A stretch of DNA of 64,000 nucleotides from Neophaeotheca triangularis (GCA_054600435.1 BAAIJX010000037.1:1-64000); one strand, 5' to 3'; positions 9,136 through 33,076 are shown, numbered from the stretch's first letter. Numbers and translations: made by a program. The notes: generated from the sequence alone by a model not told the origin.

Positions 9136-9563
9136 GGCTTTGGTCGTGTTGTGGGTGCGGTAAGCGAATATGTACTATTATTTAGAGAGGCTTGAAGAAT
9201 AATTTTGAAATAAGCTGCGTTCCTTAATGAATCGTACCTATTGTCTTCTCTTTCCACTGTCAATAACTAACGTGATCTTGTGAAACCTGAAACTTATATA
9301 AGCTTCCATGAGCTTTGGCGAGCTATTAGTAAGCACGGCATCCAAGTCTCTTCGCGGGCCGTCACGGTCTCCTGATGGCAAGCTCTACCCCGCTTTCTTC
9401 GGCTGCCCTCAAAGCAGACGACATTCGCGGGCCCTCCACTTCAAACGTCCATCATCCTCCACATTCTCTCCACGCATGGTCTGAAAGGACGATTGGAACC
9501 CAGGGGCTCCGATAACGTTAGCTGGTCAATGATGATAGCCAGAGAGGTCTGAGCGCTGTGGTC

Positions 9564-12524
9564 ATGGCTTATCTAACCCCGTCTGATGGAGGGCAAGACG
9601 CCGCGACGATGAGCCCGGAAGCAGCGAGAGGCAGTGATGATACGCCACACAACATTCGAGGCGGCGACGGCGACGACGAACCGGCGACGAAACGCCAGAG
9701 GTCGTCCGGCGGCAACAACATCGATGGAAGTCTTGCTCCATCCGCCGACTCCGCCACCAACCACCATGGGGATGCGGCCGGCCCTGAGACGGGGCAGAAT
9801 GGTCAAGCTGGCCAGCCGCCAAACTCGAGACTTTACATGTGTAGCAAATGTTCGAAGAGCTATGCTCGCCTCGACCACCTGAGCCGTCATGTCCGCATGC
9901 ACACTCAGGAGAAGCCCTATCAATGCCAAATCTGTACCAAGGCCTTCGCCCGTGCCGACCTTCTCAAACGCCACACACTTGGACATAGCAGAGATGATCC
10001 TCAGCAACGAGCCCCCGCCATCCAGCACTCGAGGGTTAGCCAGGCATGTGAAGCCTGTGCGAGTTTGCATTTGAAATGCGAAGAAGAGAAGCCATGTAAG
10101 CGATGCTCGAAGAAGAACATTCACTGTAACTACACGGCCAACTTTGTCCCTGCCCCTTCCGCCGTCGAGTCCAACCCAAGTCCGGGGACGTATATATCCC
10201 AGCAGTCGCATCAACCTCAACAACAGCCGCTGGCACCACAGCCAGATCACGGCCAACACTACCAGCAGCTTCAGCAGCCTCAGCAAGGCTATGCAAATGG
10301 CCTCCAACAGATGCCTTCCATCCAGAACTTACAGCAGATGCAAACACCGGTTCAACAGCCCATGCAAAGTCCAATGTCGTCTCTTCATCGGCACTCACTG
10401 CAAGATCAGCGCACTCAGCTTCCTCCAATGCAACCACAGATGAGCGTCGACGACACAATGATGCCTCCACCCCACACGGAAGGCGGTATGATCGATTATT
10501 TGAAGGACAAGAGAATGCCATTCGCGACTCCTACAACAGCAGGCAACCTTCAAGTCTTGAACGACTACCAAGCCCAGCAGCCGTGGACCCCTCGTGAGCT
10601 TTTCGACTTTGGTGTTGCAGATACCAATCTCGAGCTGAACGACCTTGATTTAAGCTTCCTTGACACTTACAACAATGCGAACCCATTCGACCTCCGCACG
10701 CCATCCATTGGCTATCCTACTACAGGCTCGGATATTATGCCTAGCTTCACTTCTGCAACTGTACCCCCACTAGACACAGGAGCACTGCCGAAAGCCTCAG
10801 TCTGGCGCTTCCGACCCCTGTCCAAGGACTCGGGGTCCGCGGAACAGGCCAACCTATCGCTGCCGACTCCGACAAGTCTCGACATCGACCGTCGAGTTAC
10901 ATGCGAGCCTCTATCGCAGACCTCGCGTGACAAGATCTTGGCCATGATACTGTCGAGTGTTAAACCAAACAATATCCCGAAATCTGTGGCATGCTTTCCT
11001 TCGATAGGACTATTGGACAGCTTGTTCCAGTTTTCTTTGACTTCGCCCGGCTCTCATGCTAAGCACTGGATACATGCACCAACCCTCCGAGCTGGACAGA
11101 CCCGACCAGAAGTGCTGGCAGCAATCATTGCGGCTGGCGCTGTTCTGACACCCGATGCCTCGATCCGAAAAGTCGGCTATGCTATTCAAGAAGCAATTCG
11201 CACGGCGATTCAAGTCCAACTCGAAGAAGATAATACCCTCATGCGAGATTTGCAGATTATGCAAGCGTCTCTTCTGCAGCTTAAAATCGGGCTCTGGTCC
11301 GGCGACAGCCGCAAAATGGAGCTGGCAGAAGGGTTTCAGCAGACGCTGGTCACTATGGCCCGGAGAGGCGGGCTTTTCAGGCGTGGTACCTATGAGCGAA
11401 TCGTCCCGTACGCCGAAGATCACGGCGATATCCTCGAGGGCAAGTGGCGGGATTGGATCAAACAGGAGAGCCGGAAACGTTTCGCACTGCACCTCTTTAG
11501 GCACGATCTCGAAGCTTCGGTCTCGTTACTGGTTTCGCCCTTAATATCCTACGCTGAGCTTTACCTTCCTTTACCAGAGTCTGAAGCGCTTTGGCACGCA
11601 CCTAGCGCTGAACAATGGAAATCCACTTACATGCGCTCGACGGCTCCACGCCACGACCACCAGCGTCAGCCCTCTCTCGTGGATTGCATTCAAGACTTAG
11701 ACGTGCTAGCTACCAAAGACATCTTCGTGGACCAGCGGCAAGCTTCCATGGCGGTTTTGGGGGCAGCCTGGCGTATGATCTGGGAGTACCGCCAACTAGA
11801 CTCCAGTATGAAGGAGCACTCGAGCCAGTGGATCAACGGCAATCTACTGATGAACAGCCGCCACAGCGAGCTGACCAAACTCCTCCAATACTTCCGCATC
11901 TCGTCCGTCGAAGACGCAAAAGTAACCCTAATCCTCGAACTCCTCCTCATGCACCTCCACATGTCCCTCGACGACGTGCACCTCTTCGCAGGAGTCGAAG
12001 GCGAAGAAGAAGCCCGTCGCGTCTACCCCTCTCTCGTCTCATGGACGCGCACAACCACCGCGCGCCAAGCCCTCTGGCACGCAGGCCAGGTCCTCCGCGC
12101 CGCTCGCGCTCTCCGTCAAGGTCTGATTTGCGACTTTGCAGCCATAGCCGTCTACCAAGCCAGCCTGGTCTTTTGGAGCTACGGCATCATAACCCGCGCG
12201 ACGGAGCCCACGCCCCCGCAGAGCCAACCCATAACCGCCTGGCTGGATTCTGCCGACGACGGCGGCGTGCAGCGCTGGATCATCAATGGTAAGGGCTCCG
12301 CGGCAATCAAGGTGTGGCACCACAACAACGGCTACAATGGCCAACAGCCTGCGCAACAGGCCGGTCTTGCTCAAGAGAGTTTGGCCATGATTTGTCATCC
12401 TGAGGAGGTTGTTACGGCTATGGTGGCGACTATGAGGCGGAATTATGATGGCACGAGGGCACCGCCGCTGGTGGACAATTTGGTGAATATCATGGAGGGT
12501 CTGCGGAAGGCTGCTCGGACTTGA
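9564..12524 (+). CDS. Transcription factor: two C2H2 fingers + Zn(II)2Cys6 cluster + Gln-rich region + fungal TF middle-homology region
   Basis: CSKC..H..H, TQEKPY linker, [39 protein letters not shown]-type middle-homology motif; intronless 986 aa from ATG 9564. Confidence 0.93.
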
Positions 12525-26521: not shown

Positions 26522-28503
26522 CTATACTACGTGACTGTTGGTCATACTCTTACAACAATACTGCAAGGGCAACACGACCTTGTCCGCGAGATACTTCCGC
26601 CAATTGTCCCCATCTAGAGTCTCTGGAGACTCGTTAAGACACCAGTTGACTGCAGCAATGTAATCTTCCACTGTCTCACCCTCAAGCTCCTTGGCCCATT
26701 GGGTGGCCACTATGCTACGATAGAGGGCGTTGGTCTTGTCCGCCGCCAACCCGGGCAAGGATTGCCAGAGCTTGTGATCTTCAAGAATGTGTTCAGCATG
26801 GAGCTCCAGAAGCATGACTCCAAGACACGAAAAGCTTTTTTTCGAGCTCTTGCCCTTCTCTTTGGCTGATGTCGCATTTGCCCCAAATTCTGCCGCGACG
26901 TAAGGTCGATCGAAAATAGGCGTGCAATTACTGCTGGAGCCAACCGGAAAACGAATATCCTCTGCTTGCCATTGCGTCCGTGCCCATGGGGTAGACTGAA
27001 GCTGCAAGTGCGACGAGGCAATGGCCAGAGCAATCCTGTACCTTTCGAGCAGCTTCAGGTGCACCTTGCGCGGGCCGTGAAGCGCCTCGCTTAGAGTGAT
27101 GGAGCCCGCGGCGATCTTTTGAGCGGGCTGAGAATAAACGCTGTATCCTGAACCTTCATCTCCAAGCGATCCAAGGAAAGCTGCCTCCATGCCGCAGCCC
27201 GACATAGCAAGACACAAATCTTGGATCTCACTGGTCGTTTTCTTGGGAAGAGGCGGTATCAAGCACTTAACACGCTTTCCCGACGTTTGTTTGTCGTTCG
27301 GCTGGGCCTGCGCTGTATTGGTGTTTCCGTCGAATCTTCCACGTTTTGGTAAGCAATCGTCGCTTACTGGACCCGCCCGCAATCCGAATAGAACTTACTG
27401 CAATCTGACTGTCCTAAGCTTCTTCTTTCCCTTCGACATGCTGCTTTTGCACCGGTCGGACAAGCCGTAAAGTGAGGGTCGTTGTGGCCCAGGGGGTAGA
27501 AGCATCGCAGTGTCTATTGGCTTCGCGGCCGGTGGCTCCAAACGCTTGATTTGCAACCCGGCTTGGTCCCATTGGCGCGAGAAGTTTATTGCCCCATCTG
27601 GTGTACCAAAGAGTATGAGGAGTCTGAATTCGAATTCGGGCGAGGTCCTGTGCTGTAGCCATAAGTGGGCGCGGTGACTGTCATGACAATCGCATCTCCA
27701 CGAGTTGTGCATCAACGTCCAGACGCTGTTGGCGTCCTCCCAATATTGCAGTAACGCTTTGACAGCACTTGCTGGAATAGTTGTGCTTCTAGACTCCTCC
27801 AAGGTGACCACCCATTTCGCTGAGAGCTTCAGCAGTCTGCACAGCTTCCGATTTTTGTGGGCAATTGACTCGAGCTGCTCCTTGCGCTGAGACAAGGTGA
27901 CAATAAACTTGGCGCGCTGGATCTGGTATTCCAACTTTTGTTTAACGAAGTGCTGGTTTGCAGCGCTCAGAAGTGCATCTTTGGGAGTGCTGTCAAGTTT
28001 GCCGGTGTGGGCCTGGAAGGGTTATCAGTACGCTTTACTTCGATTTCTAAGCGTCAGTAAGCTATTCTGACCAGTCTGGACTCGATCATTCCCTGGAAAT
28101 TTGGTCTGCCACATCCCAGATCCATGAGCAAGGAGTTGATCTTTGTCTGCATATCCTGGAGCAGCTCGATGAAGCGTGAATATGTATCCTGGTCGAAGAG
28201 AAGTGTTCTAAGAGCGATCTCTAGCCCACTCCCTGCGTCGGCGGGCGCATTCTGGCTGGCCAACAACTTGTCCAATCCGTCCTTCTCAAGAGTGTGTTCA
28301 GGGACTAACGGTACGAGTAGCGTCTTGATGCAAAGACGAAATTGTAATTCTTCGTCTTTGATGTCGTTGATGAAGGCTCGCCACTCACTTTCGAACTTGG
28401 CCAAGGTCTTCGCTTTCTGGTAAAATTCTCCAATATGCTCAATGACCATCAAAGCCAGAGGAAAGGCCCCCAAAACCAGGCCCACGAGCTCTATACCACT
28501 CAT
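26522..28503 (-). CDS. HeLo-like N-terminal helical domain + pseudokinase-like C-terminal domain, 619 aa, 3 exons (28503-28072, 28012-27399, 27335-26522)
   Basis: N-terminus MSGIELVGLVLGAFPL; central WxCxC..H motif; C-terminal RYRIALAIASSHLQLQSTPW...W...DI, LGVMLLEL, YIAAVNWCL, VVLPL; two GT-AG introns give 1860 nt in frame. Confidence 0.82.
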
Positions 28504-28819
28504 GGTGAAATTGTCGAGGGGTGCGGTTGGTATGGAGCTGAGGAAATATGGAGAGGTGAGACGCTGACCAGAGTCACAGGGGAGATATATGGTTCGATTC
28601 GGCCATGTGCCGTGCTCCGCCCCCTCCTGACGAGGCGAAGCCATGCATCAACGTCAGCCAGTAGACGCCCCCCGCTTGCGCGCGCGCATGAGGCTGAGCT
28701 GTCAGCTCCTTTGCCTACAAATTCAGAAGGCCCTATCTCCCCATCGCAATTTTCAAACACAGTGACTTGCGAAGCTCGCCTCTGTCGCAAAGCCAAGGCC
28801 TTCGTCAATACACGATTAT
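28504..28819. promoter_or_regulatory. 316-bp shared bidirectional promoter of the head-to-head pair
   Basis: Interval between divergent ATGs at 28503(-) and 28820(+). Confidence 0.6.
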
Positions 28820-31800
28820 ATGCGAATGGAGCCCCCTAGTCTAACTCTAAGACAGCTTGTGCGCCGGGTTGTAAAATGCATCGCAAGCTGGCATGAGTTC
28901 CTTCATAGCGACCCATCTCTGGAAAACGAAAAGATAAGAGTCGAGGATGCCGGGGAAAAGTTCCACCTCTGGGCTGGTAGTGTAGGCGCATGGCACTCAA
29001 TCAACGACCAACACTCGCTCGAATACCGTTTGCAAGCAAGCAAAGAAGTGTCTGGCCGCATCCACGGGGTGCTCAGCGACATTTGCCATACTTGTGATAC
29101 AGGCGAGTACACTCCATCAGCCTGCAACGGCGCCCACCCAACACAACGCACGATTCTGATACTACCAAGGCCTGGCTTGTGGTGACTCCAAAGAGCACGG
29201 GCTCGACTCACCACAAGTGCTTTGCGACGAAGGCGGAGATGAAGACGAAAATTTCATACTGGCGATGTCGGAGACTGTAGCCTCTACCGAATCCAGCATA
29301 TCTTACTTTGTCGCATCGCTGGAGGATTCTGTCTCTCGACTTTTTAAGATCTCTCGGTTGATAAGTCGTTCAACCACCAATGACCATTTTACTAAGGCAC
29401 AGGGCGCGCGCGATTGCAGCTTCGACGAGCTTGTGGATGTTATACACTGCAGAGACAAGTTTCGCGATTCTGCTGCGGAAGACTGGCTCTTGGAACGTCT
29501 TGGTCGAGCCAACGCAAAACGGCGGCAATACTTTGCCTATTGTCGGAGCCATGAGGAAAGACTTGCGAATGCAGAAGTCAGGATCCAACCGAACAATGTT
29601 CCGCAACCAGCGAACCACGACCGTTGCACGGCCCAAACAAGTCCGAAGAACGGGACACGCAAGCCACAAACTGCCGTCACCAACGAATTCCGAAATCAGA
29701 CCGTCGCGGCGAGCTTTCCGGGGCCAGACCCGGGTTTTGTTGACGATGGTTTCGACGACAATGTCACGTTATCGACAAGGGCTTCAACGCCAGACACTGC
29801 AGATGATGGCGAACGCGCACGCGTGCCGAAACTTGATGAATACAGTCTCAGAGGGGAAGAGTTTATCTGCCCATTCTGTCGTAGGACTCAGCGGTTCAAT
29901 AGCCAGCGATCTTGGAAGTAAGTGCGCGATCCCAAGACTTTACCTATTGCTATCGTTAACACAGCGTGTTAGAAAGCACGTGCACGCTGACCTCAGGGCA
30001 TATGTCTGTACACATCCGAGTTGTTCTATGATGTTGTTTGAAACGAAGCGATCATGGGCGGACCACGAGCATCAAAAGCATCGCCTAACGTGGTCTTGCG
30101 TGGAGTGTGTGGAGAGGTTTCCGAGCAGAACAGACCTCGCAGTACATTACCGGGAGAACCATCGCGCGGACATTTCGTCTACATCTTTGGGCTTGCTGCT
30201 CGATGTTTGCTCCTCTCCGTCTGATGTTGTTCTGGCATCCGAGTGCAAGCTCTGTCACTGGGAATCGAAGATACGTCGCTTCGAACCTGACACGCCGTCA
30301 GATCTCCCCATTCTAGTTTCTGCACAGCAATTCTTTGGACATGTGGCTGGTCATTTGGAGGACGTGGCACGATTTGCACTACCACGCATCCTACTGGAAA
30401 CCGGGACGGACCACATTTCTGGAAGCGCTATATCTAACGAGCATATCTATAGTAGCTGCAAAGTAAGTCTTGGACTCATGCCATCGCCGAGACGATGTTG
30501 ATTTGGTTGCTGACACGACACGTGCATTAGCTGAACACACTTGCGATGGAAGAGCATAGCCATACCTCATCTCGGCCTGAAAACTCTTTCTCTTCTCTGG
30601 CTTCAACAAGAGGAAATTCCCCCGTTCGCTGTGTCTTTGCTGAACTCCAAGAGACGTCTTCTGCCAATAGTATGGATCTTGTGGCGGCGTACTTGGATTC
30701 AGAATCGGACAGGTTATACGAAGTGCCTCGAGAGACAGGTGCAGGCGTGGGGTTGCCTGGCAATGATCCAACCCATGGTTTCATTGAACGAGTCCGCTCA
30801 CCTCCGTGTGCCACAAAGACTAATGATGCCGAGGCCACGCATCGCAAGTCTGTGGAAGCGCACCAGAACCCGCTGCCTGGTACAGATGTACAGGACCAGC
30901 CGGCTGATATCGACCACCAGGTGAAGCCATGTCTATTTCAAGAGCAGGACTGGCCAAAACGAGCAGAAAAGTTGGCTCTATCGGCTTTTTTGCACAATGA
31001 GAAGATTACCAGTGACCAACAAAGGATCGGCTACGACGCTCCACAGATGCTCCAGTCACTTTCCGGGCATTCCGATATCGAGCAGCCGGGCAACATATTT
31101 GAAATGCCATTCCACCTCAATTGCCAAGGCCAGGCCAGCAACCTTGATTTCCTGGACGCCTTCGATCTGCCGGTTTTGACGGCTTACCCAGTTCTTGCCA
31201 AAACGCCAGCTGACGACGGCCGTCCCGGGGGCCCTGCTCGAGCTCTAACTTCGTGGCGTTCGGCCTCGACTTCACCTGTAGCCTCCTCGCAACCAAAGCG
31301 TCGTCGTGCATACCTGTGTCCTTTATGTTGGCAAAGGTTCGCACACCCACGCGATCTGTACCGCCACTTGAACGAAAGTTGCAACCAGACTCACCGTTAT
31401 ATATGCCCTGACCAGCATTGCAGTCGGCCCCCCTTCAAGCGGGCTGAACGCTTCAGGCAGCATCATCGATGGACTCATTTCTGTCGCGAAAATACAAAGG
31501 GGGCTGATTGCATCCACGATACTCTGGCTCGTCGACCCTTGTCGACGAGGAAAGCGCTCGCTTGCGGTATCTGTGAGTTCAAATGCTCGCTCAACAAGGA
31601 CTTTGCGTCACACCTCTGCCGGGAACACTGGTGGAAGGGTCATGGCAAGGATGATTGGGACAATAAGATCAAGCTTCGTAACCTGTGGGAATACCGAATC
31701 TCTGTACAAGAATTGATCGATCCCCGTGTTGGTAACCCGTGCCGGATCGCATTATTGGACGACACTGTAACCATGCAGGAGATAATTCATTTGGAGTATG

Positions 31801-32021
31801 ACGATGACACCGAGGTCATCGCCCTGGCCAGTGCTCTACTTTGCACCAAGGGACAGCCTGAAGGGGGGTCGGAAGATAGGCATCAAGATTCGGGGCATAC
31901 TCACGCCTCTCAAAAATCCCAGGACAATAAAGCCGACGCCATACTCCCCGTGTCCTTGAAGGAGGGAATCATCAGAGTCCGCCTTAAGTCAGAGACTGGG
32001 GATCTCGGGCTACCCGTATGA
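28820..32021 (+). CDS. Helical N-terminal domain + central zinc fingers + C-terminal C2H2 array, ~1003 aa, 4 exons (28820-29102, 29170-29917, 29973-30462, 30531-32021)
   Basis: FHLWAGSVGA..SLEYRL, LFKIS, LLERLGRANAKRRQYFAY, FICPFC..WKKHVHADLRAYVC, WSCVEC..H, CKLC..HVAGHLE; C-terminal CPLC, CPDQHC, CGIC fingers; introns (first is GC-AG) give 3012 nt in frame. Confidence 0.82.
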
Positions 32022-33076
32022 GTATCCAGAGGCCAGCCAGGAGCAAACACAGGACAGCATGGAATCACAGAGCAACAGCACCAGCCACTGTGTACGCCAT
32101 CTGAACAACATTCAGAGGGTATTGACGTCTCCCGGTGGAGTCGACATACAGCAACACTCAAAGCCGCACAGCTATACGCGTCAGGGTTCCGTAAAGGCTT
32201 TCCCAGCCCATGGCAAGGGAGTTCCAGCGGGGAGGCGATTGTGATCATGGCCCAGATGATTGGTACTCACCTATCTGGCATGCCTACGTCGGGAGTGACA
32301 AGCGAACGGACTCAGGGGCAGGGGAAAGGGGTTGGGTGGCTTTGCTTTGCTTTGCTTTGCTTCAGTATAGGAGGCAGTAGATGGAGTTTCTTAACGAGAC
32401 GATAGGAGCTGGTTGATTCTCGAGGAGCTTTAAGGAGGTTTTAACTAAGGAGACTGTCTACAGCATTCGGCGTGAATCTCAACTGAAATACTGCTTTGAA
32501 AGTTTTATGTTGCTGCACAGCAGAGCTGGGCCGGAAGCTATAGAGTTCTCCTACGCCTCTGCCTTGACATCTATCGATTTACATACCGATGTTACAAGCA
32601 CGAAGAGGTTGCGAAGTCAGGCGAGCATGTGGCATGGCCTAGAATCAATGCTATGCTGTTGAATGCCAAAGAGCAGGGAGGGGCAGGGGGACGAATGATG
32701 TTTTCTCGTGGAATTGCTTGAAAGCCGCCGGGCGACTTGTCTCAATAACCAAGCGGGTAGATATAGAAACTACCAATAAATACCACAAGCTCACTATGCA
32801 TAACAGAGCAATGACGAGATGTGTATGATGCTGGTAGGATTGGGGTCGAGTCGTCGAGGTTTAGGCTTGGCATATCACGCTCGGACGCGTTTCAGCTTGA
32901 GGAGGCGATGACGGAAGGAGCAGGGGGAAGCTCGCAAGATGAGGTGACGAGCACCTTGTCGTCTCAACGACCCCTGATAACAACAACACCACCTCCCACC
33001 ATCGCACTCAAGCAGAACACTCTTCTTCATTTCCACACCAGCGCGTCAAAAACAACACCCCCAATATTTCCGCAAA

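Follow-up and report, generated by a model that had tools for sequence, protein, structure and literature searches.

A 64,000-nucleotide stretch of DNA from Neophaeotheca triangularis (GCA_054600435.1, BAAIJX010000037.1:1-64000; hereafter the window) carries two spliced genes that diverge from a short common region, gene A on the minus strand (positions 26522..28503) and gene B on the plus strand (28820..32021). We found that these two genes recur head-to-head in related loci whose other genes differ, and we hold with high confidence that they form a real co-inherited two-gene module. The pair is very probably an interacting module as well. A preliminary description of the locus had proposed that B guards or inhibits A and that A executes cell death. 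The reading that we favour, tentatively, is close to that proposal: the products of a divergent two-gene module would bind each other, and B would restrain A, a protein that may be built like MLKL.

The evidence for co-inheritance comes from metagenome contigs scanned with A-family patterns, a sample that covers one A subfamily at 10 loci from 5 record series. All 10 loci encode an A relative that is 34–67% identical to P0001, an Elasticomyces elasticus orthologue of A, and in 9 of them tblastn with the B exons and with P0008, a B relative from the same species, placed a B relative head-to-head upstream on the opposite strand. The tenth locus (L010) has only 465 bp upstream, which is short of the conserved part of B. 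Because L004 and L005 are identical, the distinct B-positive loci number 8. The distance from start to start was 305–393 bp in the 7 loci where the B motif and start codon could be placed and is 316 bp in the window (28504..28819, ATG to ATG), a region that we presume to be a shared promoter; the earlier description of two spliced genes diverging from 316 bp was thus confirmed in both gene positions and spacing. Among window open reading frames (ORFs) of at least 70 residues, only those of A and B matched any locus, even though L004, L005 and L008 carry 8 kb on each side, and the stretch with A and B is the sole part common to L004 and L008. The pair is flanked by genes for a scramblase and a haloacid dehalogenase (HAD) hydrolase in the window, by NADPH oxidase and N-myristoyltransferase in L004 and by ALG11 and Ufd2 in L008, and the gene downstream of the pair in L001 is different again; L008 and L009, which are closely related, have a downstream flank in common. 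The pair therefore occurs in no fewer than three unrelated settings, those of the window, the L004 group and the L008 group. The arrangement is more than chance: it was seen in 9 of 10 loci, and no other part of the window came back in any of them. A lack of preferential adjacency among homologues, which would have spoken against the pair, was thus not what we saw, and the wider gene order is unconserved. We found no shared sequence motif in the intergenic regions; the best 7-mer, present in 4 of 5 lineages and missing from the window, lies within the range of shuffled sequences. As a separate observation, one metagenome series (L003, L004, L007, L008 and L010) holds five versions of the pair, with A 83–90% identical between the pairs compared and at least two of the versions in different genomic contexts; these may come from several related fungi or be dispersed paralogues.

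The two genes have also diverged together. No supported branch sets the A tree apart from the B tree, as the preliminary description had asked of a true pair, and the B branches are two to three times longer (the B tree was built without L001, which offered too few columns). Taken pair by pair, A and B matched in synonymous divergence (dS), at 0.29/0.26, 0.66/0.56 and 0.78/0.76, and between the L004 and L008 groups it was saturated for both genes (1.4–2.5). The ratio of nonsynonymous to synonymous divergence (dN/dS) was 0.05–0.10 for A and 0.09–0.20 for B; both genes are under purifying selection. Between L008 and L009, the one pair that allowed this comparison, the flanking Ufd2 gene has a dS of 0.266, the same as that of A (0.29) and B (0.263), so there is no pointer to old balanced alleles. 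These values bear on a further proposal, related to the immune or toxin-antidote pair of the preliminary description: the pair would be an allorecognition (het-like) or selfish toxin-antidote locus, its linkage kept because mismatched A and B alleles kill. The tight linkage and two-gene layout would suit such a locus, as would the presence of several versions, 75–96% identical, in one metagenome series, and one paper (PMC13412767) reports that the copy number of PF26082, a zinc-finger family carried by P0008, varies between Neurospora strains. However, dN/dS is low (0.05–0.20) and dS shows no excess (0.29 and 0.26 versus 0.27 for the flanking Ufd2), and the pair versions are not alleles, because they sit in different genomic contexts. 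We found no positive evidence for this proposal, which we consider very unlikely.

To the evidence from adjacency, structure prediction adds a candidate contact between the two products. The complex was folded with stand-ins, full-length P0001 for A and residues 1–389 of P0008 for B, and it passed, with an interaction prediction score from aligned errors (ipSAE) of 0.67, 0.66 and 0.66 in three runs versus 0.07, 0.00 and 0.00 for the controls. The predicted local distance difference test score (pLDDT) of the partner was 61, and at least 47% of contacts were common to the runs. The pass mark is reached by 51 of 78 solved complexes and by 2 of 108 mismatched pairs; proteins closely akin to a true partner usually pass this test too. 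Sequence searches of the PDB turned up no related complex, which makes it unlikely that the prediction simply echoes a structure already solved. The lack of an A–B interface would have counted against the preliminary description; instead one is predicted, with an ipSAE of 0.66 against 0.07 for the best control. These models argue for direct binding of A and B, which we regard as likely. The predicted contact is N-domain to N-domain. On the A side it involves residues 38–61 (helix 2, with a conserved N-D-x-K-D-E motif; P0001 numbering), with some contacts from residues 200–204, 436–441, 559–567 and 600–605; on the B side it involves residues 40–55, 75–88 and 139–161 (P0008 numbering), which are the invariant motifs of B. 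Among the predicted contacts are N46, K49 and D50 of A and W52, R81 and R150 of B, in the same numbering. In B, conservation is higher at the interface than over the remainder of residues 30–230 (0.759 versus 0.643, permutation p 0.003).

One alternative is that A and B are merely co-regulated neighbours, kept together by a bidirectional promoter, with products that do not interact and a predicted complex that is a false positive. The mismatched pairs that reached the pass mark (2 of 108), together with 7 of 44 blindly drawn neighbouring gene pairs that did so, would allow this, as would the low confidence of the monomer model described below and the interface residues of A, which are no more conserved than the rest (0.665 versus 0.66, p 0.47). 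By contrast, an ipSAE of 0.66 exceeds those of all four known false passes (0.34–0.59), with controls at or below 0.07; on the B side, the interface falls on the invariant motif; and the pair has been kept across saturated dS (1.4–2.5) while all other neighbours changed. We consider a neighbours-only arrangement improbable.

Gene A encodes 619 residues in three exons on the minus strand (28503-28072, 28012-27399 and 27335-26522). Its two introns, of 59 nt (28071-28013) and 63 nt (27398-27336), are of the GT..AG type. This splice model is supported because database relatives are colinear with its exons (P0001–P0006, orthologues of 611–617 residues), and the exon breaks match those of related loci. 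Exon 3 is a member of the Pfam family DUF7580 (PF24476), with a match at 26561..27235 (minus strand; E 2e-11, profile positions 75–313 of 319) that scores 44.5 bits against a gathering score of 27 bits. A word-index search with this exon found 7 longer A relatives among 3139 candidates, at 42–55% identity; 6 of the 7 are from Teratosphaeriaceae, including Elasticomyces and Friedmanniomyces, and all 7 carry DUF7580 as a precomputed annotation. The profile matched in 8 of 8 A-family members tested. One of these relatives, the Friedmanniomyces protein P0007 (483 residues), lacks the N-terminal domain, and the matching locus (L002:1886-3896) encodes that domain upstream; the deposited gene model of P0007 is probably truncated.

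A first AlphaFold2 (AF2) model of P0001, built on 7 sequences, was unusable (mean pLDDT 37.5). A second model used 37 rows, with exon-wise rows from the metagenome loci added, and reached a pLDDT of 70–80 in parts of residues 40–125, 180–205 and 420–600. When this model was compared with 48,161 chains by VIA-align, kinase or pseudokinase domains made up 43 of the 50 matches listed (Z 9.0–11.3, 135–175 aligned residues, root-mean-square deviation (rmsd) 3.7–5.1), covering model residues ~412–611. The best of those listed were TNNI3K (Z 11.3, rmsd 4.7, 160 residues aligned), CTR1 (Z 11.1) and BIK1 (Z 11.0), and the list also included the pseudokinases IRAK3 and Tribbles as well as RIPK2 and RIPK3. 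Foldseek listed ~40 matches, all of them protein kinases (BRAF, TNNI3K, Src and PknB among them), with E values of 0.009–0.046. From these structural matches of the P0001 model, it follows that the C-terminal half of DUF7580 is modelled as a kinase C-lobe-like fold, the C-lobe half being the only one recovered. A does not carry the marks of an active protein kinase, a kinase profile with HRD and DFG motifs: no kinase profile matched the A family, as detailed below. Read by eye only, the place of the HRD motif is taken by A-R-K (A-R-T in the window protein).

The N-terminal part of A is what may connect it to membranes. Residues 3–21 (28441..28497, minus strand) form the strongly hydrophobic helix that the preliminary description had pointed out as hydrophobic, with a mean Kyte-Doolittle value of 2.24 over 19 residues. 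The first 13 residues are near-invariant in the family, M1, S2, G3, E5, G8, V10, L11, G12 and A13 being invariant. The rest of exon 1 (28072..28440, minus strand) would form a helical N-domain that includes helix 2, with the conserved N-D-I-K-D-E motif and the predicted contact with B; in the AF2 model of the orthologue, the helices span residues 3–30, 42–66 and 94–127. In the ESM Atlas, the named cluster nearest to the A N-domain is HeLo (score 0.93, 175 shared features), and 9 of the ten best named matches fall within one family or clan. In one cluster there, with a score of 0.83 that counts as a lead, DUF7580 makes up 37% of the members and HeLo 27%. The HeLo likeness of the A N-domain is thus one of language-model features only. 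HeLo and MLKL bundles are missing from the 50 VIA-align matches listed, but kinases fill that list and the N-domain was searched within the whole model, so nothing negative follows from it.

A has its parts in the same order as MLKL of animals and plants and as fungal HELL-kinase and HELL-pseudokinase proteins (PMC12881547): a bundle with a membrane-type first helix, connecting helices and a kinase-like domain without recognisable catalytic motifs. Control through a protein partner is likewise predicted for A. The likeness has limits. For A, the kinase fold is represented by its C-lobe-like half alone; the partner of A is a zinc-finger protein, whereas that of MLKL is the kinase RIPK3; and the predicted contact between A and B is bundle to bundle, not kinase to pseudokinase. 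By this analogy, a role for A as a putative membrane-targeting executor is possible but doubtful.

Gene B has four exons on the plus strand (28820-29093, 29170-29917, 29973-30462 and 30531-32021). For intron 1 (29094-29169) there are two possible donors, both in frame: a GT that follows 29093 and a GC that follows 29102. They differ by 3 codons and give a protein of 1000 or 1003 residues; homologues of B do not decide between them. The preliminary description of a helical N-domain followed by zinc fingers was borne out by a conserved N-terminal helical region and two C2H2 regions. The conserved N-terminal motif (residues 43–88, 28946..29083, plus strand; F-x-L-W-x-G-x-x-G ... L-x-Y-R-L), which contains the predicted contact with A, is invariant across lineages at D43, L50, W51, G53, G56, D63, L67, R70, L71, V77 and R80. 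The commonest family match for the N-domain of B was HeLo (PF14479), found in 5 of 21 rows (8 of which hold the N-terminal region) with a best E of 0.0073, all below the 23.2-bit cut-off; exon 1 of the window's own B gave no HeLo-type profile match at E ≤ 0.1. The first zinc-finger region, of the AcuF-type C2H2 class (29862..30387, plus strand), is split by intron 2 (29918-29972). An exon-2 search found one longer B relative among 1610 candidates, P0008 (524 residues, Elasticomyces; E 4.7e-34), which is colinear with exons 1–3 through the zinc fingers and ends where exon 3 ends; tblastn placed its residues 340–479 on window positions 29971-30387 at 38.6% identity. P0008 carries a precomputed PF26082.1 (zf-C2H2_AcuF) annotation. 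The local Pfam copy gave a PF26082 match for neither B nor P0008, and the membership of the window's B in PF26082 is indirect because that copy misses the family even for P0008. A PDB search with B returned weak generic C2H2 similarity only (best E 0.006).

The second C2H2 cluster and a C-terminal extension lie in exon 4 (exon-4 residues ~245–441, 31263..31853, plus strand), where Cys and His columns are invariant, and a basic K-R-R-R stretch stands directly before the cluster. The ORF of this exon (30546-32021) is catalogued alone as a 491-residue protein, P0009, which is 100% identical; that entry looks like ORF-style gene calling on a contig and not like evidence of a separate gene. No long relative of exon 4 was found by the word-index search, and a full-library search returned 33 proteins, its own ORF and 32 proteins of 174–596 residues that match only the C2H2 cluster and extension (residues ~202–441). 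Weak C2H2-type Pfam matches were seen in 8 of 13 scanned exon-4 relatives. In B relatives, the last exon reads as one uninterrupted frame, 943 codons long in L008 (3625-6453, minus strand) and 679 codons long in L004 (4384-6420, minus strand), running from the AcuF-type fingers into a second C2H2 cluster that hhalign matched to the window's exon-4 cluster (probability 93.2%, E 2.9e-7, 98 columns); BLASTP gave no significant match of exon 4 to the tail of L008 (E 0.22) or of L004 (E 0.04). Exon 4 belongs to gene B because these frames continue from the first finger region into the homologous second cluster, which speaks against exon 4 as a separate gene. After the shared second cluster, the tails part: in L008 there follow a GATA finger (E 5.8e-12) and a stretch rich in Gln and Ser, the tail of L004 has DUF6590 (E 4.4e-28) and an acidic stretch, and in the window the cluster is followed by an extension typical of small stand-alone proteins. 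The L008 and L004 tails differ, and a C-terminal module has therefore been exchanged between lineages. The integrated module that the preliminary description had placed on B, as in paired plant immune receptors, thus survives as an echo, in the form of tails that differ between lineages.

These modules allow another reading of the pair, in which B is a DNA-binding factor, with two C2H2 clusters and, in some lineages, a GATA finger and a Gln-rich tail, and A is a pseudo-enzyme that binds the B N-domain and controls its activity or location, for example as a membrane tether through the A helix, with no cell death involved. The GATA finger of the L008 relative, the C2H2-type similarity of both B clusters, and the K-R-R-R stretch together with the Gln/Ser-rich tail all fit a regulator, and the predicted A–B binding and the conserved shared promoter region fit it equally well. 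The strong purifying selection on both genes is in keeping with it too. Adjacent or divergent activator and regulator genes such as AflR/AflS and QutA/QutR are a precedent: they encode two proteins that bind each other, one with zinc fingers and one that looks like an enzyme but is catalytically dead. The A–B pair differs from them in having no surrounding metabolic cluster and in its unrelated protein families. What fits a regulator less well is that the DNA-binding-like tails vary by lineage (C2H2 extension, DUF6590 or GATA), which would be odd for a factor with fixed targets, that the shared intergenic region has no conserved motif, and that the first helix and language-model features of A resemble HeLo-type death domains. 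In addition, the Neurospora pangenome study (PMC13412767) lists PF26082 among the most copy-number-variable families, beside HET and ankyrin. This is the main alternative, and we consider it a possibility of some substance, if an unlikely one.

The arrangement that we favour would work as follows. A and B would be divergently transcribed from a promoter region of ~300–400 bp, and their products would bind each other. A would be built like MLKL, with a hydrophobic first helix, a helical bundle and a kinase-like domain without recognisable catalytic motifs (DUF7580). The B N-domain, which may be weakly HeLo- or Goodbye-like, would clamp helix 2 of the A bundle and touch the kinase-like lobe of A, and the C-terminal half of B would carry zinc-finger and other modules that differ between lineages. 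In the heterocomplex B would keep A inactive. A disturbance sensed through the zinc-finger or variable modules of B would free A, which could then oligomerise so that its N-terminal helix would act on a membrane, as with MLKL and HeLo proteins. The direction of control, the membrane attack, the cell death and the immune role are all what we infer by analogy; the proposal of a guard and an executor in a death switch is coherent and fits the architecture.

Several results weigh against this mechanism. The pairing sample is one A subfamily in which two of the loci are identical. The complex was obtained with P0001 and P0008, which both carry the name Elasticomyces elasticus, come from different assemblies, are not known to be neighbours and stand in for the window's own proteins, and the neighbouring pairs that passed blindly and the unexceptional conservation of the A surface belong here as well. 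The model of P0001 is weak (mean pLDDT 52.3, predicted template modelling score 0.34), and it gave no Foldseek kinase match at E ≤ 0.001. A has no sequence-level link to MLKL, HeLo or any kinase: kinase Pfam profiles matched 0 of 8 A-family members even at E ≤ 10; HeLo, Helo_like_N and SesA profiles matched 0 of 10 A N-terminal exons at the same threshold; and PDB sequence and profile searches with A returned no kinase, HeLo or MLKL. The degenerate kinase-like C terminus noted in the preliminary description therefore stands as a C-lobe fold in the orthologue model but not as a kinase signal in the sequence. Structural matches of the A N-domain (the Rx coiled-coil domain at Z 10.4, THATCH domains and designed bundles) fall below the level that VIA-align treats as meaningful for helical bundles. 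No sign of balancing or diversifying selection appeared in the dN/dS or dS comparisons. Finally, a DNA-binding regulator is the simpler explanation of the C2H2 clusters of B, the L008 GATA finger and the Gln-rich tail.

The mechanism that we favour has partial parallels in fungi. According to a 2025 review (PMC12881547), some fungal HELL domains stand on kinase or pseudokinase proteins, and fungal death pathways are often encoded by two- or three-gene clusters; a 2023 review (PMC10197012) describes such proteins and clusters as well. The pairs het-S/nwd2, HELLP/PNT1 and gasdermin/protease (PMC10197012, PMC12881547) resemble the A–B locus in that a putative membrane-targeting executor adjoins a putative sensor or regulator and the two are kept as a unit. 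Conserved adjacency, a trait of the executor and controller in fungal two-gene death clusters, was found for A and B in 9 of 10 loci and at least 3 unrelated flank contexts. Unlike those clusters, the A–B locus has no NLR (nucleotide-binding oligomerization domain-like receptor) or protease among the A and B exons and 31 window ORFs, and its signal would pass through a helical heterocomplex and not through amyloid templating or cleavage. Goodbye-like domains consist of an MLKL bundle core with an N-terminal extension, according to PMC9815663, and such a build would suit the B N-domain.

The plant NLR pair RRS1/RPS4 shares the divergent layout, and B likewise has lineage-variable C-terminal modules that resemble transcription-factor domains. 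Neither A nor B has an NB-ARC, NACHT, TIR or LRR domain, and the kingdom and the families are different, so that the likeness is one of layout only. The other analogies drawn in the preliminary description (doc, het-c/pin-c and sec-9/plp-1) likewise concern layout alone; a HET domain is also absent from A and B. No NB-ARC or NACHT domain was found in any exon of A or B or in the 31 scanned window ORFs, and there was no NLR or HET gene among those ORFs.

The surroundings of the pair were surveyed in ORFs of at least 150 residues, 31 of 69 being scanned, namely the longest ORF in each position. The sequence of the window is fungal, with ~52–57% G+C and short GT..AG introns, and the neighbours of the pair are ordinary genes, including those for an aldehyde dehydrogenase, a Zn-cluster factor, an SGT1-like protein, a tRNA-splicing endonuclease, a scramblase, a HAD hydrolase and NOB1, among others. 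A 1000-codon ORF at 9522-12521 (plus strand) encodes a single protein in which C2H2 fingers occur together with a Zn(2)-Cys(6) cluster and a fungal-specific transcription factor domain. Just 3' of gene B there is a GCTTT tandem run (32340-32362), and contigs aligned to the window appeared cut at 32312-32372. Of the four runs compared in this way, one contains the entire stretch and may be where the window comes from. An air-metagenome contig that matches the window ends inside gene A, at low depth, and two other runs with the same organism label gave short pieces only, with less than 95% identity to the window.

DUF7580 and PF26082, the families to which A and, indirectly, B are assigned, have no described function. 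In the main texts of the library searched, we found no literature on DUF7580 and none linking it with PF26082, which appears there only in PMC13412767; no literature on DUF6590 was found, and for an acuF zinc finger only an unrelated Aspergillus phosphoenolpyruvate-carboxykinase gene came up. The pair therefore provides a first functional lead for both uncharacterised families. The described controllers of regulated cell death in fungi are NLRs with amyloid motifs or proteases, and fungal MLKL-like proteins with a kinase-like domain have so far been noted as architecture only, with no partner named. The A–B locus offers a candidate conserved partner with a predicted contact surface in which helix 2 of A faces the invariant B motif, and the control of a fungal MLKL look-alike thereby becomes directly testable. 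If A instead proves to regulate B, the pair would consist of a zinc-finger factor and a new regulator of the pseudokinase type, and the annotation would be useful even so. In its boldest form, which we think rather unlikely, the pair would be a necroptosis-like switch without an NLR, amyloid motif, kinase or protease, in which an MLKL-like pseudokinase executor is held inactive by the HeLo- or Goodbye-like N-domain of a zinc-finger guard, encoded head-to-head, whose transcription-factor-like C2H2 extension, GATA and DUF6590 modules are swapped between lineages as baits for agents that attack such factors; if true, fungi would have a counterpart of integrated-decoy guarding that is assembled from unrelated components.

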